64,000 nucleotides of DNA, taken from contig JBNGDF010000012.1 in NCBI GenBank assembly GCA_049975265.1, positions 1,513 to 65,512 of the forward strand, in the 5' to 3' direction. Below the pieces are notes generated by a model. The model had not been told where the DNA came from and ran no database searches. It saw only the letters and a list, made by a program, of their open reading frames with translations. Position numbers and translations under genes: made by a program. Within the stretch, counting starts at the first letter, position 1, and each line of letters begins with the position of its first letter. Positions 1-18,732 of the stretch are shown piece after piece. Source of the DNA: Fidelibacterota bacterium (GTDB lineage: Bacteria; Fidelibacterota; UBA2242).

Positions 1-442
1 CGGAACCCTCCTGGTGGACGGCGGTCTGCGGGAAAATTTACCCCTCAGTGCTCTCAGGAATTTCAAATACGATACCCTGATCGGTGTCAATGTCCTGAAA
101 ACACCGCAACTGAAACTCGAGGGTATCTGTACCCCCATCAGTGTGAAGAGAGATGAGACTAAGGATACAGAGCCGGACAATTTTTTCCAGAGGATCGCCG
201 AAGCGCTCCAAATCCGGATTTCCAACCGCCTGAATCACCTGCCCCGTCTGACCTACGCCGGCTATCAGTCGATTCTGATTATGCTCACGGAGCTCTCCAA
301 CAAGGAGATTCAAATCTGTGAACCCGACCTGGTGCTGCACCTGGATCTATCCAAGATTCGTCCCTGGGAGTTCTGGCGTGCTGCCGAAGCCATCGAAATC
401 GGCTATCGGGAATCGCTGGAGCAGCTGCAAAATTTTTCCTGA
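1..442 (+). CDS. patatin-like phospholipase, C-terminal part (5' end outside window)
   Basis: The frame is open from position 2. It reads ...GTLLVDGGLRENLPL, the patatin catalytic-Asp DGG motif. The track start at 14 is an internal GTG. Confidence 0.55.
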   Translation, partial: GTLLVDGGLRENLPLSALRNFKYDTLIGVNVLKTPQLKLEGICTPISVKRDETKDTEPDNFFQRIAEALQIRISNRLNHLPRLTYAGYQSILIMLTELSNKEIQICEPDLVLHLDLSKIRPWEFWRAAEAIEIGYRESLEQLQNFS

Positions 443-5018: not shown

Positions 5019-6305
5019 TTACGAAGAGATACTTTTTATGATATTAAAAAATTCCGGAAACGAGATTCCCACGCAGTCGGCGTCCCGAATCACCGATTCG
5101 CCGTCCGCAATAGAGGCGGCTACCGAAAGTGCCATGGCAATCCGGTGATCGTCGTAACTGCGGCATTCCGCACCGTACAGTTTCGTCGGTCCCTCTACGA
5201 TAAAGCCGTCCTCGGTCTCTTCAATTGCTGCCCCCATCTTTTTCAACTCACTGACAATCGCCGCAATCCGGTCGCTCTCCTTGATCCGCAGTTCCAGAGC
5301 ATCGCGGACAATCGTTTGTCCCTGAGCCTGGGTCGCCAGGACAGCAATAAGCGGCAGCTCGTCGATCAGTTTCGGGATCAGGCTGCCGCCTATTTCAACG
5401 GCTTTCAGCGGTGCCGACACAACCCGGATATCCGCCAGCGGTTCATTGGCAACCAGCCGCTCATTTATGAGCTCCGGCGCCGCGCCCATCTGCCTGAGGA
5501 CGGACAGCAACCCGGTGCGCGTCGAATTGATGCCCACATCGTGCAGGGTCAAGCGGCTGTCGGGAACGAGGAGCCCCAGCGCCAGCATAAACGCGGCTGA
5601 TGAAATGTCCCCGGGAACCTGAAAATTCCGCGCCGCCGGCTGACGATTTTTTCCGAGAGTGATGACGGCGCCCTTCCGTTGAACCTCCACGCCGCAAAAT
5701 GTCAGCATTCGTTCTGTATGATCGCGGCTTCTGACCGGTTCGATGACCTGCACGGCTCCGCCGGCATAGAGACCAGCCAGCAGGACCGCCGATTTGACCT
5801 GGGAGCTGGCGACCGGCAATTCATAGCTCACGTCGGATAATTCCGTTCCCCGGATAAAAAGGGGGGCGAACCGGTTCGTCCGGCGCCCGTAAATTTCGGC
5901 ACCGTTCTGCGTCAGCGGCTTGATAATGCGGTCCATGGGGCGCCGCCGCAAGCTGGCATCACCGGTCAGGATGGTCGCAAAATTCTGACCCGCCAACAGA
6001 CCGCAGAGCAGCCGCATCGTCGTTCCGGAGTTGCCGCAATCCAGAACATCCTCGGGTTCGCGGAGCGACCACTGCCCCTTTCCGTGGATTTCAATTTCGG
6101 AACCGCGGTGGCGAATATCCGCTCCCAGGGATTGCATACAGTTCAGAGTGGAACGGCAGTCAATCGCCGATGAGTAGTTCCGAATGCGGCTGATTCCGTT
6201 GCCGATTGATGCCAGCATTGCCGCCCGGTGTGAGATTGACTTATCGCCCGGAATGGTGACGTCGCCACGCAGGCGGGTGATGTGCGACAGAGAGATATCC
6301 GCCAC
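5019..6305 (-). CDS. aroA: 3-phosphoshikimate 1-carboxyvinyltransferase (EPSP synthase)
   Basis: 428 aa with KSISHRAAMLASIGNG and LDCGNSGTTMRLL motifs. Last gene of the minus-strand aro operon. Confidence 0.9.
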   Translation of the reverse strand: MADISLSHITRLRGDVTIPGDKSISHRAAMLASIGNGISRIRNYSSAIDCRSTLNCMQSLGADIRHRGSEIEIHGKGQWSLREPEDVLDCGNSGTTMRLLCGLLAGQNFATILTGDASLRRRPMDRIIKPLTQNGAEIYGRRTNRFAPLFIRGTELSDVSYELPVASSQVKSAVLLAGLYAGGAVQVIEPVRSRDHTERMLTFCGVEVQRKGAVITLGKNRQPAARNFQVPGDISSAAFMLALGLLVPDSRLTLHDVGINSTRTGLLSVLRQMGAAPELINERLVANEPLADIRVVSAPLKAVEIGGSLIPKLIDELPLIAVLATQAQGQTIVRDALELRIKESDRIAAIVSELKKMGAAIEETEDGFIVEGPTKLYGAECRSYDDHRIAMALSVAASIADGESVIRDADCVGISFPEFFNIIKSISS

Positions 6306-7319
6306 CTAAATACTCCGCCCGACGGCTTTAGCGACCTTTTCCAGCTCCTTCATCAGCTGTGCAAAATGCTCGAAAGTAATCGATTGATAGCCGTCAGAAA
6401 GCGCCTTATCGGGAAAAGGGTGGACCTCAATCATGACGCCGTCCGCACCGGCGGCGATGGCGGCTTTGGACAGGGGGATAATCATATCCCGGCGACCGGA
6501 AGCGTGACTGGGGTCCACCAGAACCGGCAGATGAGACTGCTGTTTCAGTTCCGGAATACTGCTGATATCCAGCGTAAAACGGGTATAGTCGTTAAATGTC
6601 CGGATGCCCCGCTCACACAGCACGACGTTGTAATTTCCGCCGGACATGATGTATTCCGCTGCCAGCAGAAATTCGCTGATCGTAGCGGAAATACCGCGCT
6701 TAAGCAGAATCGGTTTTTTGCAGTGCCCTGCCCGCTTCAGCAGCGAGTAGTTCTGCATGTTGCGCGCTCCGATCTGAACCATATCCACATATTCTTCCAC
6801 CAGATCAAAGCTCTCCGTATCAACGGCTTCGGAGACTACCGGAATGTCAATGAGCTCCCGGGCATCCGCCAGGATTTCAAGCCCCCGTTTTCCCAAACCC
6901 TGGAAGGAGTAGGGTGAGGTGCGTGGTTTGTAGGCGCCGCCTCGCATCAGATCGGCGCCGAGCATTTTCAACAGGCGTCCGCCTTCATTGGTGCCTTCTA
7001 CAGTTTCAACGGCGCAGGAGCCGGCAATGATTGTCAGCTTTTTCCCGCCGATGGCGACCTTTCCGACCTTTACAACCGTATCTTTGGCTTTCATCTCACG
7101 GCTGCCCAGCTTGTAAGGCTTTTTTACATCATCAATATTCTTGACGCCGGGCATTTTGGCGATTTGCTCCCGATCCAGTCCGGCGTGATCACCGGTCACT
7201 CCCATGGTGCCGGTGGAACCCTTGGGAAGATTATGCACATCACCCCCCATTTTTTTTATCAATTCGGTAACCCGTCTGATCTCCTTTTTTGTTGCCGAAT
7301 CGTCCATTGTAATAACCAT
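6306..7319 (-). CDS. 3-deoxy-7-phosphoheptulonate (DAHP) synthase, class I-beta with N-terminal regulatory domain
   Basis: 337 aa with a KDO8PS/DAHPS-like TIM barrel ([11 protein letters not shown]..., GARNMQN, LKRG). The roughly 70-aa N-terminal extension is typical of Tyr/Phe-regulated Thermotoga-type DAHPS. Its stop abuts the aroA start. Confidence 0.8.
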
Positions 7320-7334
7320 TTTAATATTTCTCCT

Positions 7335-7772
7335 CTACAAAGCACTTATGTTGCGAATAAAATATTCTATAGCCAGAATATATCCGAGATACCCCAGCCC
7401 GCTGATTTGACCCCGGCATACCGGCGCAATCAGCGAGGTCTGCCGGAAATGTTCCCGGGCGTGAATGTTGCTCAGATGGACCTCGATCACCGGAACAGCG
7501 ACCGCTTCCACGGCATCCCGAATCGCTACGGAGCTGTGTGTAAAACCACCGGGATTTAAAACAATCCCGGTCAGCCCTCCTGATTGCTGAATGGCGTCGA
7601 TAATGTCGCCTTCATGGTTACTCTGGACTATGTCCACCGTTACATTTTTGGATTTCGCAAAGGTTGTAATTTTTGCGTTGATCTCGTCCAGGGTCTGCAC
7701 GCCGTAATGCTCCGGCTTGCGCTGCCCCAGCAGATTCAAATTTGGTCCATGAATGACACGAAATTCTGCCAT
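7335..7772 (-). CDS. aroQ: 3-dehydroquinate dehydratase, type II
   Basis: 145 aa. The N-terminus VIHGPNLNLLGQRKPEHYG is the type II DHQase signature. Confidence 0.9.
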   Translation of the reverse strand: MAEFRVIHGPNLNLLGQRKPEHYGVQTLDEINAKITTFAKSKNVTVDIVQSNHEGDIIDAIQQSGGLTGIVLNPGGFTHSSVAIRDAVEAVAVPVIEVHLSNIHAREHFRQTSLIAPVCRGQISGLGYLGYILAIEYFIRNISAL

Positions 7773-9349
7773 GTCAACTCCTTTATGCTACTCTTTCCAA
7801 TGGACGTTAAAACGGGAATTTTCAGCCTCCCGTCCGCCAATTTTTTATCCTGAAGTAAATGCTCCCGCAGTTTCCCGGTCTCAAGCCCTGGTGGCAGGGT
7901 TACCGGCAGCCGGTAACGCCGGATCGTACGGACAATCCGATCGATATCATTCTCCGGCAAGCCGGATATCCGGCGGGCGATCTGTGCCTCCAGCACCATC
8001 CCGGTGGCTACCGCCTCACCGTGCCTGATGCCCCGGTAATGACGACCGGCTTCGATCATATGACCGACGGTGTGTCCGAAATTCAGCAGCGAGCGAAGTC
8101 CGGAAATCTCCCTTTCGTCTGCCCTGACGATGTTTCGCTTAATCTCGACACACCGGTAGACAATGAACCCCAACAGCTCGTTATCGCGCGCCAGCACCGC
8201 CCCGGAATTTTTCTCCAGCAGATCAAACAGTTCACTGTCCCGAATCAGAGCGGCTTTAATCACCTCTGCCAGACCGTTGCGGTATTCCCGTCCGGATAAT
8301 GTTTTCAGCAGTTCAATATCCGCCAGCACTAATTCCGGCTGATAAAAACTGCCGATCAGATTTTTCCCGGCGGGATGATTGACACCGGTCTTGCCGCCCA
8401 CGCTGGCGTCTACCTGTGCCAGCAACGTCGTGGGAATGTGTATCAGCCGGCAACCCCGCTTCAGCGTCGCCGCCACAAATCCGGATATGTCGGTCACCAC
8501 GCCGCCGCCCAGCCCGATGATCAGGTCGCTGCGGTCGAACTGATGTTCCAGAAGGGCGTCGTAGATTTTTACCACTGTCTTCAGTGACTTGAAGCGCTCA
8601 CCGTCAGGAATTACAACGGGTAGAACGGAAATATCCATCGCCGCCAGCAGACTGGTGAACCGGTTTAGCCACAGCGCGCCCACCAGCGGATTGGTGATGA
8701 CCGCACAGCGGCGGGGAACTTTCCGCAACAGCCGGGGCAGCGTCTCCAGAATGCCGGTGCCGATCCGGACGGGGTATTCACCACCTGCCGTTGTTACCGG
8801 TACGGTGATGGTTTTGATCGCTTTGGCTTTTTCGTAGAAATCTTCAATGCGAATTTCAGGATGCGTTTCCCGCAGGATTCTTTCGGCAATCTCCGCTGGT
8901 GACAGGTCATCGGTGGCGATGGTGATTTTTGCTAAGTCGTACATCCCGCGGCGCTCCGCCAATAAATTTTCAACAGCCCCCGGTTGTCTCAGCAAAGGGC
9001 GGGTTTCATCACCCGCCAGACGCTTTTTTACCGTCCCGGCGGTCACTTTCAAATGCACGACAGTTCCCAGTCGCGCCAGACGTTTTTGGTTCAGCGGCTC
9101 TTTGACGATGCCGCCGCCGGTCGCCAGCACGATATTTTGCAGGCCGCGGAGGGAGCGGAGCATTCTGGATTCCAGACGCCGGAAGTAGCTCTCGCCGCTC
9201 TCTTCAAAAATAGCGCTGATGCTGCGCTTTTCCGCCAGTTCGATCATCCGGTCGGTGGACAGAAAGCGCAGACCGCTACGCCGGGCGATTTCACGCCCTA
9301 CGCTGTCCTTACCGCTGCCCATGAATCCGATCAGGATCAAATTTTGCAT
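7736..9349 (-). CDS. aroKB: bifunctional shikimate kinase / 3-dehydroquinate synthase (AroK-AroB fusion)
   Basis: N-terminal P-loop LILIGFMGSGKDSVGREIA (shikimate kinase). The C-terminal 370 aa carry DHQ synthase motifs (GGGVVTDISGFVAAT..., DASVGGKTG). Overlaps aroQ by 37 nt. Confidence 0.85.
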   Translation of the reverse strand: MQNLILIGFMGSGKDSVGREIARRSGLRFLSTDRMIELAEKRSISAIFEESGESYFRRLESRMLRSLRGLQNIVLATGGGIVKEPLNQKRLARLGTVVHLKVTAGTVKKRLAGDETRPLLRQPGAVENLLAERRGMYDLAKITIATDDLSPAEIAERILRETHPEIRIEDFYEKAKAIKTITVPVTTAGGEYPVRIGTGILETLPRLLRKVPRRCAVITNPLVGALWLNRFTSLLAAMDISVLPVVIPDGERFKSLKTVVKIYDALLEHQFDRSDLIIGLGGGVVTDISGFVAATLKRGCRLIHIPTTLLAQVDASVGGKTGVNHPAGKNLIGSFYQPELVLADIELLKTLSGREYRNGLAEVIKAALIRDSELFDLLEKNSGAVLARDNELLGFIVYRCVEIKRNIVRADEREISGLRSLLNFGHTVGHMIEAGRHYRGIRHGEAVATGMVLEAQIARRISGLPENDIDRIVRTIRRYRLPVTLPPGLETGKLREHLLQDKKLADGRLKIPVLTSIGKSSIKELTWQNFVSFMDQI

Positions 9350-10476
9350 ATTCGTTCCCGGTATTGTCGAAAATTGGCTTTGATATCTTCTAAACTGTCA
9401 CCGCCGAACTTTTTCACCACGTCATCGGCGAGCGTCAGCGCCAGCATGGCTTCGCCCACGACGCCGGCTGCCGGCACAACGCAGACATCCGCCCGCTCTT
9501 TTTGAGCTGCCACCGCCCTGCCGGTGTGGATATCGGCGGATTGCAATGGCGTCCGCAGTGACGGCAGCGGCTTGATTTGCATGTATACGACAACATCTTC
9601 GCCGTTGGTCATGCCGCCCTCGATACCGCCAGCGTGATTGGTCTTGCGGAAAAATCTGCTCTTTTTTTGAAAGTAAATCTCATCCTGTGCCGCCGAGCCC
9701 GGTTTGTTGGCGATATCACGGTCGCCGATAATTACCCCTTTGACTGACGGAATAGACATCAGCGCCGCGGCAATTTTGGCGTCCAGACGCTCATCCCACC
9801 GGGTGTATGTGCCCAGCCCGGGGCAGACCCCTGCGGCGCGGATTTCCGCCACACCGCCCAAGGTATCGCCCTTTTTCGCCGCTGCATCAATCCGCTCCAG
9901 CATGCGCTGCTCCTGCAGCGGGTCGGCGCAGCGCAGCGGGGATGTTTCTGTTTCTTCCGCTGTCCGCGTTCTCTGGTCAATTTCAATATCGGCGATGGCG
10001 ATTGTCTGCGACGATAAATGAATTCCAAATTCCCGGAGAAAAAGTTTCATCAGCGCGCCAGCAGCCACCCGTGCGGCGGTCTCCCGGGCGCTGGCGCGCT
10101 CCAGAACATTGCGCACGTCCCGAAAACCGAATTTCTGTACACCCGCCAGATCAGCGTGCCCGGGACGCGGCGCGGTCACCGGTTCGTCAACGGTCAGTTT
10201 TTCCACATTCATCCGCCCCTGCCAGTTGGCATAATCCCGGTTTTGGATCCAGAGGGCAATGGGTGACCCGAGCGTTTGACCGTCACGGACACCGGATAAA
10301 ATTTCCACCTCGTCGGCTTCGATCTGCATCCGTCCGCCGCGACCGTAGCCCTGCTGCCGCCTCCGGAGTTCGGCATTGATAAAGGCAATATCCACCGGCA
10401 GTCCCGCCGGAAAGCCGTCAATAATGACGCTCAGCCCTTTTCCGTGCGATTCTCCGGCGCTGATCATTTTAATCAT
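9337..10476 (-). CDS. aroC: chorismate synthase
   Basis: 379 aa with GESHGKGLSVIIDGFPAGLP and RRRQQGYGRGGRM motifs. Confidence 0.9.
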   Translation of the reverse strand: MIKMISAGESHGKGLSVIIDGFPAGLPVDIAFINAELRRRQQGYGRGGRMQIEADEVEILSGVRDGQTLGSPIALWIQNRDYANWQGRMNVEKLTVDEPVTAPRPGHADLAGVQKFGFRDVRNVLERASARETAARVAAGALMKLFLREFGIHLSSQTIAIADIEIDQRTRTAEETETSPLRCADPLQEQRMLERIDAAAKKGDTLGGVAEIRAAGVCPGLGTYTRWDERLDAKIAAALMSIPSVKGVIIGDRDIANKPGSAAQDEIYFQKKSRFFRKTNHAGGIEGGMTNGEDVVVYMQIKPLPSLRTPLQSADIHTGRAVAAQKERADVCVVPAAGVVGEAMLALTLADDVVKKFGGDSLEDIKANFRQYRERICKI

Positions 10477-11248
10477 GATTCATTCCTAACGCTTTTTGCA
10501 TGACACCCACCGGCGCTTTTTCACCGGTAAAAATCTCAAAGGCTTTGACGCCCTGATAGAGCAGCATTTCCAGTCCGTTTACGCAGCGAATTTCGCCGCA
10601 CTGCCGTAGGGAAAATTTGTAATTCAGGTCCAGATACAACGAACCCCTTTGCATGAAAGGGGTTACGTCGTCCTGAAAATCAACCGGGCTGGCATTGATC
10701 ACCATAGCAGTGTTATTGAGAGTGGTCTGAAGAGCATCGGTGGCGATGACCGTCGCCGTCTTGTAGTGCGACGCCAGCGCCTCCGCCTTGGACCTTTCAA
10801 TGTCATGGAGATACAGTCGTTCGGGCTGGTACTGATTCAGCACCCAGGCGGCGGCTTTCGCTACTCCGCCGGCGCCGATCATGAGCACTTTTTTGCCACG
10901 CAGATCGATCCTGGTGTGTTCCAGCAAAATCCGGAAACCGTAGATGTCGGTATTGTATCCGGAGAGACCATCCTCATCGAAGACGACCGTGTTGACGGCA
11001 CCCACCTCCTGCGCTTCTTTAGCTATGCGATTGAGAAAGAGCAATACCGTTTCTTTGTGTGGGTTTGTAACGTTTACTCCCCTGCAGCCGATTACCCGGA
11101 GGGCGTCCAGGACGTCCTTCAGCCGGGTCGGTTCCACAGGTATCCGGAGATAGGCGCCGTCAATTTTTTTCGCCTGAAATGCCGCATTATGCATGCGGGG
11201 CGAATAGGTCGTTTCCAGCGGATAGCCGATAATGCCGGTAATCAGCAC
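10469..11248 (-). CDS. aroE: shikimate dehydrogenase
   Basis: 259 aa. GIIGYPLETTYSPRMHNAAF..., NVTNPHK, and the NADP fold GAGGVAKAAA. Confidence 0.85.
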   Translation of the reverse strand: MLITGIIGYPLETTYSPRMHNAAFQAKKIDGAYLRIPVEPTRLKDVLDALRVIGCRGVNVTNPHKETVLLFLNRIAKEAQEVGAVNTVVFDEDGLSGYNTDIYGFRILLEHTRIDLRGKKVLMIGAGGVAKAAAWVLNQYQPERLYLHDIERSKAEALASHYKTATVIATDALQTTLNNTAMVINASPVDFQDDVTPFMQRGSLYLDLNYKFSLRQCGEIRCVNGLEMLLYQGVKAFEIFTGEKAPVGVMQKALGMNHD

Positions 11249-11251
11249 ACT

Positions 11252-12367
11252 CTACTCCTTTCCTGAAATTTCCTCTCTGTTTAACCACTCCTTTGACCTG
11301 CACATGCTCTGAACGAAACGCTCCGGTTGATCGTTCATAACACAATCTATAAGAGCTGTCATAGCCTGTTGCATCTGCTCGTAAAGCTCTTTTTTAAAGG
11401 GATTATATTTCTGAATTAAATAATAGAGCTCCGGGTTTTCATTGATTACACTGGAAGCCGTCGCCATTTGCGAGAGAAAGGTGGTGCTGGCAATGTCGCG
11501 CATCTCGCTGTAGCGGAATCCGCTCCCCGCCAGAATTTTCATATAGATAATATTGCTGATATGCGAGAGCCCCAGCACGTAGGAAATCGCCCGGTCATGG
11601 GTGTCCAGCGCCAGGTCGACACTTCGGGCGGCGGTGTCTCTGAAAAAGGCTTTCGCCCGGTTCAGCGCTTCCGAACTGCCGCAATTGCAGTAGCAGACCA
11701 CCTTGTCCGAAAGGGTGCGCACACTCGGTCCGAACATGGGGTGAATACTGGTAATCAGGAGTCCCCGCTGCCGGGCTCGTTCGATCGCCTCCCGCAGATG
11801 ACCCTTGATGCTGGCGATGTCGAATACCAGCCCCCGGAAATTCAGGTCTGCGATCCGCATGATCATTTCGGGCACCGCATCCAGCGATACGGCAATCACG
11901 GTGCAGCTGGCGCGCGCCAGCCCCTCTTCCAGCGTCGCCACCGCCTTAAATCCCGGTGCCGTCTCCACGATATCATAGACCAGTACCTCGTGTCCCTGGG
12001 TCTCAAAAAAAGAGGCGAGCCAGTGCCCCATTTCACCGGCACCGCCTACAATCAGGATGGTTTCCTTGTCACCGCTGTAGGCGCTGTAATGCTGCCGTTC
12101 CTGTTGCGTCCGGGACTCGCCGATCAGCAGCTGCATGACCGCTTTGACAAAATCCGGCGACAGATTCAAGTCCCGGGCAACCGCCCCGGCATTTTCCATG
12201 ACCGCTTTTTCCACCTGGTAGTTCAGGAGCGGTAGACCGGCGGCTTTTTTAATCTGCCCGATGGTATGAGTCAGTTCGAGACGCCTGCCCACCAGCCGGA
12301 TAATCTCCCGGTCCACCCGGCGCACTTCGTCGCGCATCTCTTCCAGTTTTTCCATAACCTCTTTCAC
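11252..12367 (-). CDS. tyrA: bifunctional chorismate mutase / prephenate dehydrogenase (T-protein)
   Basis: The N-terminal 90 aa form an AroQ-class chorismate mutase helix bundle (LEEMRDEVRRVDREIIRLVGRRLEL...). The remainder has a Rossmann fold (ILIVGGAGEMGHW) and a prephenate dehydrogenase domain. RBS AAGAGG. Confidence 0.8.
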   Translation of the reverse strand: MKEVMEKLEEMRDEVRRVDREIIRLVGRRLELTHTIGQIKKAAGLPLLNYQVEKAVMENAGAVARDLNLSPDFVKAVMQLLIGESRTQQERQHYSAYSGDKETILIVGGAGEMGHWLASFFETQGHEVLVYDIVETAPGFKAVATLEEGLARASCTVIAVSLDAVPEMIMRIADLNFRGLVFDIASIKGHLREAIERARQRGLLITSIHPMFGPSVRTLSDKVVCYCNCGSSEALNRAKAFFRDTAARSVDLALDTHDRAISYVLGLSHISNIIYMKILAGSGFRYSEMRDIASTTFLSQMATASSVINENPELYYLIQKYNPFKKELYEQMQQAMTALIDCVMNDQPERFVQSMCRSKEWLNREEISGKE

Positions 12368-12382
12368 TTGTCATTAAAACCA

Positions 12383-12415
12383 AAACGCGGGTCTTTTCAG
12401 GCCCGCGGTTTTTAT
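12383..12415 (-). terminator. attenuator terminator hairpin upstream of tyrA (CGCGGG-loop-CCCGCG + U4GGU4)
   Basis: Minus strand reads AAAAACCGCGGGCCUGAAAAGACCCGCGUUUUGGUUUU. It sits 16 nt upstream of the tyrA RBS. An upstream GGUCCGCGG inside the leader ORF can pair with the 5' arm in a 9-bp antiterminator. Confidence 0.55.
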
Positions 12416-12431
12416 TCTTTTTCTGATTTGC

Positions 12432-12530
12432 TTAATGGTTTCGAATCCGCGGACCTGGCTCAATTTGCCCATTAAAATAGTAATATGTGGTGTAATTCAG
12501 AGGCATATTGAGCAGTTCACGCTTCATCAT
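12432..12530 (-). CDS. Tyr-rich leader peptide (32 aa, MMKRELLNMPLNYTTYYYFNGQIEPGPRIRNH) of tyrA-aro operon attenuator
   Basis: Not in the ORF track. Minus-strand ORF ATGATG...TAA has 4 Tyr codons plus 1 Phe codon in 7 consecutive positions. It ends 17 nt before a terminator hairpin that lies just upstream of tyrA. A TTTACA-17-TATATT promoter is directly upstream. Confidence 0.55.
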   Translation of the reverse strand: MMKRELLNMPLNYTTYYYFNGQIEPGPRIRNH

Positions 12531-12687
12531 GCACCAAATATAGGATTGAAAATCCTTAGTGTAAAGAAAATTTTTTCAAGGAGCCGTTTTTTTACACCGG
12601 GATAATTATTACTCCCCGGATGCCCGAAACAGTAACCGGATGGAGTCCGGCTGCGATGCTACTGACCACAGCCGGACTTTCCGGATG

Positions 12688-14055
12688 CTATTTCCCATTT
12701 AGCGGCAGATGATCGAGAGCCGCCCGGATTTTCTCTTCGGGATATTCGTAATCCTCCAGTTTTCCGGACAGGTAGGCGTCGTAAGCCGCCATGTCCACAT
12801 GCCCGTGACCGCTCAAGCCGATCAGGATCGTCTTCGACTCGCCAGCCTCTTTACATTTCAGCGCCTCATCAATGGCGACCCGCACGGCATGGTCGGTTTC
12901 CGGTGCGCAGATGATCCCTTCGTTGCGGGCAAACTGCAGCCCGGCTTCGAAGGTTCCCAGCTGGTGCACCGCGGTGGCTTCCACCAGCCCCAGCTTATGC
13001 AGATGCGTCACAATCGGCGCCATGCCGTGATAGCGCAACCCACCCGCATGTACCGGCGGCGGCATGAATTCATGTCCCAGGGTGAACATTTTCAGCAGCG
13101 GTGTCATACCGGCTTCGTCACCGTAGTCATAAGCGTATAATCCCTTGGTCAGCGTCGGGCAGCTGGTGGGTTCCACATTGATAATCCGCAGGTCCGGTTT
13201 CTTACCGTCCAGTTTGTCCTTTAAAAAGGGCAGATAGAGTCCTGCGGCATTGGAGCCGCCGCCCACGCAGCCGACGATGATATCGGGGTAATCACCGATA
13301 TCTTCCATCATGGTTTTGGTTTCCTGCCCTATAATCGTCTGGTGCAGCAGCACGTGATTCAGCACGCTGCCCAGTGAGTAATGGGTGTCATCCCGGGAAA
13401 CCGCGTCCTCCACCGCCTCGCTGATTGCCAGACCGAGACTGCCGGGGCAATCCGGGTCCTCTGCCAGGATTTTCCGTCCCACCGCCGTTTCATCACTGGG
13501 GCTGGGTATGCAATTGCCGCCCCAGGTCTCCATCATGATACGACGATAGGGCTTCTGGTAAAAGCTGCATTTGACCATATAGACTTTGATTTCCAGCCCG
13601 AACAGCGCTCCGCCAAAGGATAGCGCGCTGCCCCACTGACCGGCGCCGGTCTCGGTGGTGATCCGCTTGATGCCCTCTTTTTTATTGTAATATGCCTGAG
13701 CGACGGCGGTGTTGGGCTTGTGGCTGCCGGGCGGGCTGGTGCCTTCGTACTTGTAATAGATTTTTGCCGGGGTGTCCAGAGCCTTTTCCAGACGCCGGGC
13801 GCGGTAGAGTATCGTCGGACGCCATAGCCTGAATATATCCTGCAGCTCTTCGGGAATCTCAATATAGCGCTCGGAACTCATCTCCTGCCTGATCAGCTCC
13901 ATGGGAAAGAGCGGTGCCAGATCTTCAGGTCCCAGTGGCTGTTTGGTGCCCGGATGCAGTGGCGGCGGCAGCGGCGCCGGCAGGTCTGGCAACACATTAT
14001 ACCAGTGTGTCGGCATTCGTTTTTCGTCCAAAATGTACTTCGTCTGTTCCATCAT
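12688..14055 (-). CDS. trpB: tryptophan synthase beta chain, TrpB2 type
   Basis: 455 aa PLP enzyme with the N-terminal extension typical of TrpB2 ([10 protein letters not shown]..., [16 protein letters not shown]). RBS GGAG. Confidence 0.85.
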
Positions 14056-14097
14056 TCACTCCTCTGTTTAGATTTATGGATTTCCTCTGACTGTCAT

Positions 14098-14132
14098 ATA
14101 ACAAAAATCGCGGGCTTTTTCAGGTCCGCGAT
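14098..14132 (-). terminator. attenuator terminator hairpin in trpB leader (AUCGCGG-loop-CCGCGAU + U5GUU)
   Basis: Minus strand reads AUCGCGGACCUGAAAAAGCCCGCGAUUUUUGUUAUAU, about 45 nt upstream of the trpB start. Near-identical to the tyrA-leader hairpin. Upstream CAGGU...CGAUC can form an alternative antiterminator. Confidence 0.5.
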
Positions 14133-14155
14133 CTATTTTGCTATGGTTTTTTGAC

Positions 14156-14248
14156 TTACTGTCGATGCCCGATCGGCAAACCTGAAAAGATATCTGCCTG
14201 GTGCCACCACCAGTTCCAGGTATTGTTTATTGTCAGGTTCGCTCGCAT
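14156..14248 (-). CDS. Trp-rich leader peptide (30 aa, MRANLTINNTWNWWWHQADIFSGLPIGHRQ) of trpB attenuator
   Basis: Not in the ORF track. Minus-strand ORF with four TGG codons in five consecutive positions (W-N-W-W-W). The stop is followed 25 nt later by a terminator hairpin, then trpB. CCUGG...CCAGG flanks the Trp codons. Confidence 0.55.
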   Translation of the reverse strand: MRANLTINNTWNWWWHQADIFSGLPIGHRQ

Positions 14249-14302
14249 CGGCAGTTAATATAAACCGAAAATCCAAAAACACAAAAGAAAATTTCTTTTT
14301 CA

Positions 14303-14368
14303 AACCTTCGGAAGGTTTTCACAAGCCCCGCTCGTATCAAATCTCTTCCGTCAAAACTTCCGAAGGTT
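14303..14368. promoter_or_regulatory. two copies (one perfect, one degenerate) of 15-bp palindrome AACCTTCGGAAGGTT upstream of secreted-protein gene
   Basis: Perfect 7-1-7 palindrome at 14303-14317. A degenerate copy AACTTCCGAAGGTT lies at 14355-14368, 52 bp away. The same motif family is arrayed at 16650-16790. Confidence 0.45.
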
Positions 14369-14494
14369 GTATAAAGAAAGTCTTGCATTTTTTCGGTTTT
14401 TTTACATATTTCATAAGGAGAAATCGACATAATTATTCCTTCCGGGAAAATTTGCAGGAAAAGGTTTTGTGAATTATTTAACGAGGGGGAGACA

Positions 14495-16543
14495 ATGAAA
14501 AGAACCACGTACATACTATTGGTAGCCGGACTGCTCATCGCAGTGAGCGGGATGGTGATGGGGCAGACAGAGTTGCTGGAAAATGGAGGTTTTGAATCCT
14601 GGGATGACACTTCAACACCAGCTGGCTGGGATCACATTGAAAGTATCACACAAGAAGCAACTGAAGTCAGATCTGGTTCTTATTCGGCAAAGCATGTAGG
14701 AGGAACCAAAGATTTAGGCCAATATATTGCTGTTACTGGAGGAAAATCATATACTGTTACTCTTTGGTATAAGGTAACTGCAGGCGATGGTACTGACGCA
14801 AGAATTTGGTCATATTGGAGAAGTAGCGGTTCTAATCTGGATGATAATGCTAGTGAATTAAGAGGTCCAAATAATTCATATTTTGATAACAATGGTGGTG
14901 TCTGGACACAGTATACCGTTACATTGGATGCTCCGCTTTCCGCGGATGAATTTTATTTTGAGGTTAGAACATATTCTGGTGCTACTGTTTACTGGGATGA
15001 TTTTTCGTTTCTTGAAAATTCAGTATCTTCGGATCCAGAACCAACAAATCATGTCAGCAGCTTTTCAGCAAGTCTAAATGGCTATAGTGCCATTGACCTT
15101 ACCTGGTTAGATAACGATGGGACGGATGTTGCTTTAGGATTTTTAATATTGGCAAACACAAGTGGTTCTTTTACTGATCCAGTTGATGGAACACCTCAAG
15201 CAGATGACACCGATCTTAGCGACGGTTCCGGAGTAAAAAATATTGCCCATGGTGTTCAATCATATACATTTACCGGATTAACTGCAGAAACAACTTACTA
15301 TTTCAAAATTTATCCCTATAGCAATGTGAGTGAAAATATTAATTATAAAACGGAAGGGGATGTTCCAAGTGCAAGCGCCACAACTGAAACACTTCCCAAC
15401 GCCTGGATCAATGAGATCCATTATGATAATGATGGTAGCGATGTAAATGAGGGGGTTGAGATTATCATTGAAAATCCTGGTGATTACACGCTATCGTCTT
15501 TTACTGTCACATTATACAATGGAAATGGCGGAGCGTCTTATGGTTCAGAAACATTAGATAATTTTACCGTAGGAAACTCTCAAGGAGATTTTACAATTTA
15601 TTATAATACTTCAGCATGGGGAAGTGGAATTCAAAATGGAGCTCCAGATGGTCTTGCATTATCCTATCAGGGACATTTAATTCAATTCCTGAGTTATGAA
15701 GGTACATTTACTGCTACCGATGGTCCGGCTAATGGCATTACTTCAACTGATATAGGTGTCAGCCAAAGTGGATCTGATCCTGTTGGTGAAACTCTCCAAC
15801 TCATAGGCGGCGGTACACAATACTCAGATTTCACTTGGGGCAGTTCTACATACCCTGCAACCTGGGGCGCTCCGAATAATGATGGAAGTACCGATCAATC
15901 CCTCCCCGTCGAGCTGAATGGTTTCAATGCCGTTCCTGGCAACGGCGAGGTGACGCTCTCCTGGACCACCGAATCCGAGACGGAAAACCTGGGATTTATC
16001 ATTCAAAGGAGACAGGAAACAACCTGCCTGACTGCGCAGAGCGGTCAGGGAGAATGGAAACTGGTAGCGGACTATACGACCGATGAAACCTTAGCCGGGC
16101 AGGGCAGTACTTCCGAAGCCCATGAATATACATACACCGACGCGCAGGTTGTGCCGGGCGCAACTTATCTCTATCGCCTCGGCGATGTGGATTACAGCGG
16201 TAAGGTTACGTGGCATAAAGAGGTCGAGGTTAAGGTTGAGGTTGAGGATGAGCAGGTGCCAGTGGTTTTCAGCTTAAAACCGGCGTATCCGAATCCCTTT
16301 AATCCGGAAACCACGCTGCGCTTTCAGCTGGGCGAAGCCTCCCATGTTCGGGTTCAGGTGTATGATCTGCTGGGCAACCTGGTGACGACGCTGACCGATG
16401 GGCGCTATCAGGTCGGGCGCTACAACCTGCACTGGAACGGATGCGATGACCGGGGACGCCTGTCCTCCAGCGGAGTCTATTTCATTTATATCAGCAGCAG
16501 CACCGGTTTTACGAGTACGCAAAAGGTTGTCTTTCTGCGCTGA
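14495..16543 (+). CDS. secreted multidomain protein with T9SS C-terminal sorting domain (lamin-tail-like / FN3-like modules)
   Basis: Signal peptide MKRTTYILLVAGLLIAVSGMVMGQ. C-terminal PNPFNPETTLRFQL...VYFIYISS...VVFLR is a T9SS-type CTD. RBS GAGGGGGAG. The N-terminal two thirds are markedly lower in GC than the C-terminus. Confidence 0.7.
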   Translation: MKRTTYILLVAGLLIAVSGMVMGQTELLENGGFESWDDTSTPAGWDHIESITQEATEVRSGSYSAKHVGGTKDLGQYIAVTGGKSYTVTLWYKVTAGDGTDARIWSYWRSSGSNLDDNASELRGPNNSYFDNNGGVWTQYTVTLDAPLSADEFYFEVRTYSGATVYWDDFSFLENSVSSDPEPTNHVSSFSASLNGYSAIDLTWLDNDGTDVALGFLILANTSGSFTDPVDGTPQADDTDLSDGSGVKNIAHGVQSYTFTGLTAETTYYFKIYPYSNVSENINYKTEGDVPSASATTETLPNAWINEIHYDNDGSDVNEGVEIIIENPGDYTLSSFTVTLYNGNGGASYGSETLDNFTVGNSQGDFTIYYNTSAWGSGIQNGAPDGLALSYQGHLIQFLSYEGTFTATDGPANGITSTDIGVSQSGSDPVGETLQLIGGGTQYSDFTWGSSTYPATWGAPNNDGSTDQSLPVELNGFNAVPGNGEVTLSWTTESETENLGFIIQRRQETTCLTAQSGQGEWKLVADYTTDETLAGQGSTSEAHEYTYTDAQVVPGATYLYRLGDVDYSGKVTWHKEVEVKVEVEDEQVPVVFSLKPAYPNPFNPETTLRFQLGEASHVRVQVYDLLGNLVTTLTDGRYQVGRYNLHWNGCDDRGRLSSSGVYFIYISSSTGFTSTQKVVFLR

Positions 16544-16857: not shown

Positions 16858-18732
16858 ATGTCTATTAAAAAATTCCTCTCACTCAGCATCGGCATTCTGC
16901 TGCTTTTTACAATTGCCGCCGAGGCGCAGATACCCGACGGTTACTACGACGCCGCCGACGGCAAAACCGGCTCAGAGCTGAAGGCGGCGCTGAACACCAT
17001 CGTAAACACGGGCTTGAATCGAGTTTCCTATGGCGATTCCAGAAATATCCTGGATAAAACCGATCAAGACCCGGATAATCTTGATAATATCATTTTAGTA
17101 TACCGGGGAACTTCCGTAAGTGGCGACTGGGACGAGGGAACAACATGGAATCGCGAACATGTCTGGCCACAGTCTTTGCTCGGATTAGAAGATTTAAGGA
17201 ATACAGATAAAAATGTCGGAACCGATCTTCATAATTTAAAACCCGCCAATCCCAGCGAAAACAGCAGTCGGAGTAATAAATATTATGACAATCAAACCAC
17301 ATCTGCCAGCTATGCTCCAAGAGATGCCGTAAAAGGCGATCTTGCCAGAATTTTATTTTACATGGTTATTGCTTACGAAACATATCCTCTGGATCTGGAA
17401 CTTGTCAATCACGAACCAAATCTATATCAAATGGCGATGCTTGATGTTCTACTTGAATGGCATGAACAGGACCCTGTGGATTCTTTTGAGGAAAACAGAA
17501 ACGAAATTATCTATAGTTATCAGCACAACCGCAATCCCTTCATTGATCATCCCGAATATGTCGCCCTGATCTGGTCCGAAAATCCACCGCCGCAGCCGCC
17601 ATCCGACCTGGTTGCACTGGATGCTGCGCAAACCTCGCTGCTACTCCGCTGGACCGACAACTCCGCCGAGGAGAATGGCTTTATTATCTATCAGAACAGT
17701 GTCAGGATCGACAGCGTCGCCGCCGATTCCACCAGCTACCAGGTGATAAATCTGCTGCCCGGCACCCTCTACTGCTTCGCCGTCACCGCCTATAATAATT
17801 ACGGCGAATCCGCCGCCGCCGTTCTGGAAGTCACTACCCTGCCCGGCGATTCGAGCCAGACGACCCCCGATTCACTCTTTTTCTCCGAATATATCGAGGG
17901 CAACGGTTTCAATAAAGCCTTGGAAATTTATAACGCATCCGGTCGTTCTGTAAACCTCTCCGGCTATTCCATTCTGGCTAATTCCAACAACAGTCCCTGG
18001 TACCAGACTCATTACAGCTTTCCCGCCGGGGCGGTCCTGGAACCCGGCTCCGTCTGGGTCATCATGAACTCCGGTTTCGATTCGACGTATCACTCAGTCG
18101 CCGACGAGCTGACTTCCGCCACCGTTGTTAATTTCAACGGCAATGATGTCCGCGCTTTGGTAAAATTCAATGCCGCCGATACGACCTTCCTTGATGTGAT
18201 CGGCGTCTATGGCGATACCGCTGAAGTCGCCGCCTGGTCGGTCGCCGGAATCACCGGTGCCACCGAGAATCATACCCTGGTTCGCAAACCATCGGTCAAG
18301 TGTGGCAATCCCGACTGGTACAGCAGCGCCGGAACGGATTCCCTTGATTCCGAATGGCTTGTCTATGCCGGCGACACCTTCGATTTCCTCGGCTATCATA
18401 CTGTTGATACGGTCAGCGCTATCGATATTTGTAATGTGGCGCCTGCCGTCGAATATTTTCGGCTCTACAGCTGCTACCCCAATCCCTTTAACCCCACGAC
18501 GAAAATCCGCTATGATCTCGAAACGATCGCTACCGTGACGCTGCAGATTTTCGATCTGCGCGGAGTCCTGGTCAAGACCCTTGTCCACACCCGGCAGCAA
18601 CCGGGACACTACCGGGTAGCCTGGGACGCCCGGGATCAGCAGCAGCGCAGCGTTCCGGCGGGTGTCTATCTCTACCGGTTGCAGACCGCCGACGGCTTTG
18701 GGCAGACCGGCAAAATGATGTACCTGAAATAA
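16858..18732 (+). CDS. secreted endonuclease I (EndA/Vvn family) fused to FN3, lamin-tail-like and T9SS C-terminal domains
   Basis: Signal peptide. REHVWPQS...NRNPFIDHPEY are endonuclease I motifs. An FN3-like segment (LRWTDNSAEENGFIIYQN) follows. C-terminal YPNPFNPTTKIRYDL...YLYRL is a T9SS CTD. Confidence 0.75.
   Translation: MSIKKFLSLSIGILLLFTIAAEAQIPDGYYDAADGKTGSELKAALNTIVNTGLNRVSYGDSRNILDKTDQDPDNLDNIILVYRGTSVSGDWDEGTTWNREHVWPQSLLGLEDLRNTDKNVGTDLHNLKPANPSENSSRSNKYYDNQTTSASYAPRDAVKGDLARILFYMVIAYETYPLDLELVNHEPNLYQMAMLDVLLEWHEQDPVDSFEENRNEIIYSYQHNRNPFIDHPEYVALIWSENPPPQPPSDLVALDAAQTSLLLRWTDNSAEENGFIIYQNSVRIDSVAADSTSYQVINLLPGTLYCFAVTAYNNYGESAAAVLEVTTLPGDSSQTTPDSLFFSEYIEGNGFNKALEIYNASGRSVNLSGYSILANSNNSPWYQTHYSFPAGAVLEPGSVWVIMNSGFDSTYHSVADELTSATVVNFNGNDVRALVKFNAADTTFLDVIGVYGDTAEVAAWSVAGITGATENHTLVRKPSVKCGNPDWYSSAGTDSLDSEWLVYAGDTFDFLGYHTVDTVSAIDICNVAPAVEYFRLYSCYPNPFNPTTKIRYDLETIATVTLQIFDLRGVLVKTLVHTRQQPGHYRVAWDARDQQQRSVPAGVYLYRLQTADGFGQTGKMMYLK

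Follow-up and report, generated by a model that had tools for sequence, protein, structure and literature searches.

A predicted tryptophan-codon leader-peptide attenuator upstream of trpB2, with a Tyr/Phe-codon paralogue upstream of tyrA, in a Fidelibacterota genome

In a 64,000-nucleotide stretch of DNA from a Fidelibacterota bacterium (contig JBNGDF010000012.1; the whole stretch is called the window below), the trpB2 gene is preceded on the minus strand by a leader that is read here, with a probability of about 0.8 based on sequence comparison and folding, as a transcription attenuator of the ribosome-mediated kind, through which the level of charged tRNA-Trp would control trpB2. An earlier note, made from the letters of the window alone, had proposed attenuation of the trp-operon type at this site, and this proposal is supported: leader open reading frame (ORF), terminator, antiterminator, anti-antiterminator and cognate gene are all present and conserved. 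The mechanism appears to be of a known type with some variant features, namely where region 1 lies, a start that is probably leaderless and the presence of two paralogues with swapped codon cassettes. Feature coordinates are given in Table 1.

The leader contains a short 5′ ORF in which codons for the end product of the pathway are clustered in a run. As previously described, this ORF has 30 codons and carries four UGG codons within five positions. The TGGNNNTGGTGGTGG pattern occurs once in the 64 kb, compared with 0.02 occurrences expected from dinucleotide shuffles. When all of the window was scanned for further small ORFs that combine an amino-acid run with a terminator, only the Trp leader and a second, Tyr-codon leader (see below) were returned, the remaining matches being intragenic (coding). 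The leader stop codon, UAA at 14158-14156, is nearly invariant across relatives in an alignment of 12 leader sequences (alignment A1), from which the pairing statistics below are taken.

The leader RNA has three helices that are mutually exclusive and conserved. The anti-antiterminator (R1:R2) pairs region 1, GCGAACCUGA, with UCAGGUUUGC (14242-14233 with 14185-14176; -12.1 kcal/mol for the core); 86.8% of alignment cells are paired, and 3 pairs are altered on both strands. The antiterminator (R2:R3), which is mutually exclusive with the terminator, pairs UUUUCAGGUUUGC-C-GAUC (14188..14171) with GAUCGCGGACCUGAAAA (14133..14117) over 17 bp with one bulge (-20.8 kcal/mol); 95% of its cells are paired versus 28-50% in slid controls, and the unguided RNAalifold consensus is this same helix. 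The intrinsic terminator (R3:R4), AUCGCGG(A)C / G(C)CCGCGAU at 14132..14107, is located between the leader ORF and the structural gene (80.2% of cells paired, -9.9 kcal/mol), and its U-run, UUUUUGUU, ends at 14100, 44 nucleotides (nt) before the trpB2 ATG (14055). One terminator column pair (132/149) is G-C in 5 sequences and A-U in 5 others, and the same R3 column pairs in the antiterminator with a U of R2, as U-G or U-A. The whole terminator-state structure is 86% paired versus 31-41% in slid controls, with 6 pairs altered on both sides, a number reached by 0 of 500 shuffles. In addition, a small hairpin over the Trp codons (CUGGUG/CACCAG) varies only on its non-codon 3′ strand, mostly from U-A to U-G, so the UGG codons appear to be constrained by more than pairing.

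The terminator hairpin and U-run shortly before trpB lie where the earlier note had seen them. The complementarity between CAGGU..CGAUC and GAUCG..ACCUG that it had reported is real, but the antiterminator is a helix of about 17 bp with one bulge and not two 5-bp helices. Similarly, the CCUGG...CCAGG hairpin that it had likened to a 1:2 pairing exists in the window, but as a conserved element it was rejected (53% of cells paired across relatives, equal to the +1 slid control); what is conserved as region 1 is GCGAACCUGA, which precedes the Trp codons.

Conservation was assessed with trpB2 loci gathered blind to the leader (80 genomic, 80 metagenomic and 12 by exact-protein look-up). All 13 distinct relatives (TrpB2 identity 82-97%) have an ATG in frame with 2-4 UGG codons in a run, together with the three mutually exclusive helices, that is, both the regulatory codons and the alternative structures are kept in related genomes. 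The Trp-rich small ORFs that the earlier note had suggested seeking upstream of related trpB2 genes are present in 13/13, and the case it had named as refuting, a relative in which the hairpin is kept and the Trp codons are lost, does not occur among the 13. The relatives' leader peptides include MRANLTINNTWNWWWHRVD..., MKANLKIKTNRNWWWRR..., MLANLSINLNNWWWWRN..., MKANLLKMSNNNWWWCRE*, MKVNLNINTNQNWWWRQ..., MIANSAINNKNWWWQK..., MNANLTINKTRNWWWRR... and MKVNLSRMLNKNWWCRR... (the minimum, two UGG); the leader of locus L164 reads MKVNLSRMLNKNWWCRRG... and has another in-frame ATG upstream. In the triple-UGG core, 8 of the 9 positions are invariant (A1 window positions 45-52) and the ninth is nearly so, and the stretch from the ATG to the Trp run has a single indel, of 3 nt (L166). 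The leader is 70-83% identical to those of relatives and the promoter block (-45..-8) 68-84% identical versus a random baseline of 58%, whereas the 200 nt further upstream are 55-59% identical, which equals the shuffled baseline; the attenuator is therefore a conserved island. The distance from terminator to trpB2 ranges from 44 to about 300 nt across relatives, and this variability fits transcriptional control better than translational control.

The promoter elements assigned to the leader recur in relatives, which carry TTG-containing hexamers at the same -35 location and, in 12/12 leaders of A1, TATATT 7-8 nt 5′ of the leader ATG. TATATT is likewise located 5-9 nt 5′ of the ATG of the Tyr leader in the window (12537-12542, minus) and in relatives. 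In the window sequence no Shine-Dalgarno motif precedes the leader AUG; trpB2, by contrast, has AGGAG. Because the -10 box is so near the ATG and a Shine-Dalgarno motif is lacking, the mRNAs that encode the two leader peptides (Trp and Tyr/Phe) are probably leaderless, or nearly so. Directly 5′ of the leader promoter, the divergent intergenic region contains a perfect 12-nt inverted repeat, AACCTTCGGAAG ... CTTCCGAAGGTT (arms 14368-14357 and 14314-14303, minus), which among relatives with the upstream region read is found only in the 97%-identical loci L001, L081 and L082, which are from hydrothermal or anoxic sediment samples; the repeat could be an operator or an insulator hairpin.

In the proposed mechanism, the leader AUG is probably itself the transcription start or adjacent to it, as the -10 box is only 8 nt upstream, and a ribosome would then translate the 30-codon leader. 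R1 (codons 3-6) lies 5′ of the Trp codons and is separated from R2 by a loop of 47 nt, so that a stalled ribosome would be in the R1-R2 loop and not on R1. When Trp is scarce, stalling at the four UGG codons would place the ribosome between regions 1 and 2 and block R1:R2 pairing, and a second ribosome queued at the start may cover region 1 too; regions 2 and 3 would then form the 17-bp antiterminator, which would use up the 5′ arm of the terminator, and RNA polymerase would enter trpB2. When Trp is plentiful, the ribosome would pass region 2, reach the conserved UAA and occupy the space that separates region 2 from region 3; the terminator hairpin, which is the weaker structure, would then form with its U-run, and transcription would end 44 nt before trpB2. 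Without translation, R1:R2 would pair first and the terminator would form again. In most relatives the ORF crosses R2 and has its stop codon halfway to R3, so that a terminating ribosome would occupy the R2-R3 loop; in L003 the stop codon is just 5′ of R2, which is the classical arrangement. The transcription start, ribosome stalling, steric wedge step and in vivo termination are parts of the model that we infer, and its weakest link is the presumed role of the ribosome as a steric wedge in the R1-R2 or R2-R3 loop.

Folding of the predicted states is consistent with this scheme. When only the RNA 3′ of the ribosome is folded with the A site at the last UGG, removal of the 5′ RNA being an assumption, the antiterminator is the minimum free energy structure in 7 of the 8 leaders evaluated, including that of the divergent L087 (L161 entered only in part). 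When the ribosome is placed at the stop codon, the terminator is the minimum free energy structure in 8/8.

Several points weigh against the attenuator reading. The footprint of the stalled ribosome leaves region 1 uncovered, and a footprint-only mask still folds R1:R2 and the terminator, so disruption of R1:R2 by steric effects or queueing is a modelling assumption; as the nearest-neighbour model has no sterics, the footprint-mask fold neither supports nor refutes the step from stall to antiterminator. The full leader from the AUG prefers the antiterminator at equilibrium and the two global states are nearly isoenergetic, which means that in Trp-replete cells termination has to be decided kinetically, as in E. 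coli. At -9.9 kcal/mol the terminator is of modest strength, with one internal mismatch and an interrupted U-run. Without a Shine-Dalgarno motif, translation of the leader rests on the presumed leaderless start, and the L164 leader has only two UGG codons. Finally, the close relationship of the sequences limits covariation, and all of them come from metagenome-assembled genomes (MAGs) and metagenomes.

The window contains a second attenuator of the same design, located between trpB2 and tyrA, in which a run of Tyr and Phe codons takes the place of the Trp run. Its predicted states parallel those of the Trp leader: in the RNA 3′ of a ribosome on the Tyr/Phe run, CAGGUCCGCGG pairs with CCGCGGGCCUG as an antiterminator (-22.5 kcal/mol), and the terminator folds once the ribosome is placed at the stop codon. 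The Tyr/Phe leader is conserved in relatives (e.g., MMKRNLKYMPFNYTLYF... and MKTNLKHTLIYNLYF...). A covariance model derived from the Trp leaders of 12 sequences scores the Trp leader of the window at 174.8 bits, and its next best match in the window is the Tyr/Phe leader (37.1 bits, E 2.9e-5; spans 14092-14256 and 12370-12486, both minus); it also matches the Tyr leader of every relative with 28-44 bits (L001, L002, L003, L083, L085, L161, L162, L164, L169, L171). The alignment of the model to the Tyr leaders spans R1, R2 and the terminator and leaves out the codon cassette, and the terminator core CGGNCCTGAAAARNCCCG is confined, within the window, to the Trp attenuator and the Tyr/Phe attenuator. 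The two elements are therefore best read as paralogues that differ in specificity through their regulatory codons. As the identity of the codons fits the downstream pathway at both leaders, the arrangement is hard to explain unless the codons are sensed.

This pairing of codons with pathway also bears on the alternative that the same switch is run by a factor other than the ribosome (a Trp-activated RNA-binding protein, uncharged tRNA or a small ligand) with the ORF incidental, which we consider quite unlikely. The conservation of the RNA helices in their own right, the lack of a Shine-Dalgarno motif before the AUG and the T-box control of trpB2 in other phyla would suit such a factor, but a paralogue with Tyr/Phe codons before tyrA is predicted by codon sensing and not by a site for a ligand or protein. 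Moreover, the ATG, frame and UGG run are kept in all relatives with a sole pre-Trp indel of 3 nt, the UGG strand of the small hairpin is invariant whereas its pairing partner varies, TRAP-type repeated GAG/UAG triplets are absent, and an Rfam scan of 12300-14400 at E up to 10 returned chance-level matches only, with no Trp_leader, Bacteroid-trp or T-box among them.

A functional Trp-rich peptide that acts in trans, instead of or besides a cis role of the leader, is very unlikely. Such activity has a precedent in peTrpL, a trans-acting leader peptide of Sinorhizobium described in PMC7298713, and relatives resemble each other in the N-terminal M-x-A-N-L and C-terminal FSGL(P/L)IG segments of the peptide; these segments, however, are exactly RNA regions 1 and 2. 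The peptide varies from 18 codons (L003) to 37 codons (L002) and has other C-termini in L084 and L166, and RNA pairing is kept in all of them, which indicates that the constraint is on the RNA and the UGG codons and not on the peptide. There is equally little likelihood that leader translation acts on trpB2 without intrinsic termination, e.g., through Rho-dependent polarity or initiation of trpB2 translation: the weakness of the terminator hairpin and the distance of 220-305 nt between attenuator and trpB2 in L003, L162 and L171 would be compatible with such a route, but every relative has the hairpin and U-run, no conserved helix sequesters the AGGAG of trpB2, and the variable distance favors a transcriptional effect. 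A chance ORF beside an ordinary or bidirectional terminator of neighboring genes, which the earlier note had listed as refuting, is effectively refuted itself. On the plus strand the hairpin does also score as terminator-like, but the genes on both sides diverge from the 5′ region that holds it, and it ends no gene on either strand; moreover, the ORF, UGG run and alternative helices are conserved against flanks at random level, and Trp-run small ORFs before trpB2 are far commoner in sense than in antisense orientation (see below).

The downstream gene belongs to the TrpB2 family, as the earlier note had recognized (NF009057, 735.6 bits with a cutoff of 366; TIGR01415, 651 bits), and hence to biosynthesis of the cognate amino acid. 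Its true start is likely the second ATG, at 14052. A database entry of 454 aa with 100% identity over 100% of the query is a TrpB-like protein from a Fidelibacterota MAG, and the closest genome records are those of Candidatus Neomarinimicrobiota / Marinimicrobia. The description of trpB2 as stand-alone holds in that no trp gene is adjacent, but the gene heads a same-strand aromatic cluster (tyrA, aroE, aroC, aroK-aroB, aroQ, DAHP synthase and aroA) that extends down to 5019. In this cluster, tyrA is below the curated NCBIfam cutoff and has a bifunctional chorismate mutase/prephenate dehydrogenase (CM/PDH) as its best match, and a single ORF of 537 aa joins shikimate kinase to 3-dehydroquinate synthase (aroK-aroB, 7736-9349, minus). 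Among relatives, 220-305 nt are inserted between the terminator and trpB2 in L003/L085, L162/L163/L168 and L171/L172; in these loci the trpB2-tyrA gap is 466 to about 1300 nt, and some assemblies (L162, L164) have N-runs or duplicated segments. The upstream neighbor (14495..16543, plus) is divergent and encodes a secreted protein with a C-terminal sorting domain of the type IX secretion system (T9SS). A further secreted protein with a T9SS C-terminal sorting domain (16858-18732, plus) has Endonuclease I, lamin-tail and fn3 domains and is likely an extracellular nuclease. These neighbors agree with the earlier description of a lineage with T9SS cargo that is not proteobacterial, which can now be specified as Fidelibacterota (Marinimicrobia); the window comes from a MAG of an uncultured marine-sediment bacterium.

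Control of trpB2 by tRNA-Trp looks widespread in sequence comparisons beyond this lineage, Marinimicrobia having the leader-peptide version. Among 141 trpB2 loci from many phyla, upstream small ORFs with WW or WxW are found 31 times in sense and 4 times in antisense orientation, and those with WWW 15 times versus 0; a control with Met, which also has a single codon, gives 4 versus 1. T-box leaders above the Rfam gathering score precede trpB2 in Dehalococcoidia, in Atribacterota and at one further locus, L086, and in L055, the sole T-box read, the specifier position is UGG (Trp). L087 has a divergent Trp leader with its own antiterminator/terminator pair, i.e., the same logic from unrelated sequences. 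The interchange of T-boxes and leader peptides as sensing systems is already known (PMC2965389).

Two groups of small ORFs were observed in these loci. A conserved upstream ORF of 14-19 codons, M(S/F)TM(S/A)WxWP..G.., has its own Shine-Dalgarno motif and lies 24-107 nt before trpB2 in L053, L055, L056, L062, L071, L149 and L152; in 5 of these 7 loci (L055, L056, L062, L071, L149) it is located between the T-box terminator and trpB2, and the scan of L053 and L152 gave no T-box match at gathering level. Unrelated Trp-run small ORFs precede trpB2 in L023 (Spirochaetota), L051, L147, L150, L151, L011 and L087, with peptides such as ...KKNWWWWAETP, ...KWYWWWEREAAH, ...WWCWWWK... and ...KNWWWH...; their lack of relatedness suggests repeated invention of Trp leaders.

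Table 1. Coordinates of the two predicted attenuators, the associated genes and the T-box loci (window positions unless a locus is named; T-box positions are those of the locus)
Feature	Position	Strand	Basis or remark
-35-like hexamer TTGTGT, leader promoter	14279..14284	minus	16 nt 5′ of -10 box; inferred from sequence
-10 box TATATT	14257..14262	minus	8 nt 5′ of leader ATG; read from sequence
Leader peptide ORF, trpL-like, 30 codons, MRANLTINNTWNWWWHQADIFSGLPIGHRQ*	14156..14248	minus	translation
Regulatory Trp codons UGG-AAC-UGG-UGG-UGG (codons 11, 13, 14, 15)	14204..14218	minus	UGG at 14218-14216 and 14212-14204
Region 1, anti-antiterminator 5′ strand, GCGAACCUGA, codons 3-6	14233..14242, extends to 14245	minus	pairs with 14185..14176
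Small hairpin CUGGUG/CACCAG over Trp codons (possible pause hairpin)	14198..14213	minus	94.4% of cells paired
Region 2, UUUUCAGGUUUGCCGAUC, partner of region 1 or region 3	14171..14188	minus	alignment pairing and RNAalifold
Region 3, GAUCGCGGACCUGAAAA, antiterminator 3′ strand; also terminator 5′ arm and loop	14117..14133	minus	17 pairs with region 2
Intrinsic terminator, stem 14132-14124 / 14115-14107, loop, then UUUUUGUU	14100..14132	minus	-9.9 kcal/mol
trpB2, TrpB-like pyridoxal 5′-phosphate enzyme, 455 aa	12688..14055	minus	Pfam PALP; NF009057; TIGR01415
Second, paralogous attenuator	12376..12565	minus	in 320-nt trpB2-tyrA gap
Promoter TTTACA-17-TATATT, sigma-70-like	12565..12537	minus	sequence
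Tyr/Phe leader ORF, 32 codons, MMKRELLNMPLNYTTYYYFNGQIEPGPRIRNH	12530..12432	minus	translation; abbreviated MMKRELLNMPLNYTTYYYFNG...
Tyr/Phe codons	12494..12474	minus	run YTTYYYF
Tyr/Phe antiterminator strands	12457..12447 and 12408..12398	minus	folding
Tyr/Phe terminator, hairpin CGCGGGCCUGAAAAGACCCGCG, then UUUUGGUUUU	12407..12386, U-run 12385..12376	minus	sequence
tyrA (CM-PDH), aroE, aroC, aroK-aroB fusion, aroQ, 3-deoxy-D-arabino-heptulosonate 7-phosphate (DAHP) synthase, aroA	5019..12367	minus	Pfam domains
T-box loci upstream of trpB2 (also L056, L062, L071, L149, L086)	L005 2365-2653; L055 2623-2860		Rfam

A wider proposal, which we put forward tentatively and at somewhat less than even odds, is that Fidelibacterota possess a modular attenuator scaffold (a promoter-adjacent, probably leaderless ORF, R1 at codons 3-6, R2 inside the ORF and a shared terminator loop, CUGAAAA(G/A)) that was duplicated and re-targeted by a swap of the codon cassette, with a UGG run for trpB2 and a Tyr/Phe run for tyrA-aro, and in which the ribosome would act as a wedge in the R1-R2 or R2-R3 loop rather than by masking R1. 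Separately, the same proposal holds that trpB2 may be controlled by tRNA-Trp charging across many phyla, through leader peptides or Trp T-boxes.

The physiological role of trpB2 is still debated. A Trp-codon leader in this lineage, together with the T-boxes and Trp-rich upstream ORFs elsewhere, would provide regulatory evidence that TrpB2 makes tryptophan under scarcity, and if control by tRNA-Trp across phyla is true, it would argue that in nature TrpB2 genuinely forms tryptophan and is induced by starvation. The attenuators would extend classical leader-peptide attenuation to an uncultured phylum of the FCB group and to trpB2, and the tandem Trp and Tyr/Phe paralogues would be a natural example of how the specificity of an attenuator is re-programmed by a few codons on a fixed RNA scaffold. 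The pair would also constitute a new RNA family that current annotation pipelines miss.

Among known systems, none of the Trp_leader (RF00513), Bacteroid-trp (RF01692) and T-box (RF00230) families was found in the Rfam scan at gathering score, and a literature search, which was not exhaustive, found nothing specific on attenuators of Marinimicrobia, leader-peptide control of the TrpB2 family or Tyr-codon leaders before tyrA. The structural layout of E. coli trpL serves as the reference for comparison. The leader described here resembles it in the short ORF with tandem UGG codons, in the four regions that form anti-antiterminator, antiterminator and terminator, in the U-run and in the interval of about 16 nt from the last Trp codon to the start of region 2. 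It differs in that the Trp codons are not part of region 1 but follow it, the ORF crosses region 2 and reaches its stop codon before region 3, there are four Trp codons where E. coli has two, and the start is probably leaderless; the target is trpB2 and not trpEDCBA, and the phylum is Fidelibacterota. Bacteroid-trp is a Trp leader-peptide attenuator upstream of tryptophan genes. It is taxonomically the nearest system (FCB superphylum), but it differs in phylum and downstream gene and has no cmscan match here; it is tabulated as a cis-regulatory RNA of Bacteroidetes in PMC2864571 (Weinberg et al., 2010).

PMC11802643 summarizes how attenuation works and how it depends on Trp-charged tRNA. Outside Proteobacteria, actinobacterial trp attenuators have leaders with 2-3 UGG codons and a terminator/antiterminator (PMC1262725). 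The closest analogue of the Tyr/Phe attenuator is the aroR leader (Phe-Tyr-Phe) of Corynebacterium glutamicum, which is located before aroF and controls a shikimate-pathway operon (Neshat 2014, as cited in PMC11802643). The sequences of the two are unrelated, and, unlike aroR and the actinobacterial leaders, those of the window are tandem paralogues on one scaffold, in which the Tyr run YTTYYYF precedes tyrA itself. The designation "trpB2A" used for C. diphtheriae in PMC1262725 appears to be a gene-copy label (trpB1/trpB2), which we take not to denote the TrpB2 family. Trp T-boxes likewise sense the charging of tRNA-Trp via a terminator and antiterminator, but they bind uncharged tRNA directly and without translation, whereas the leaders of trpB2 and tyrA in this window would read charging through a translating ribosome.

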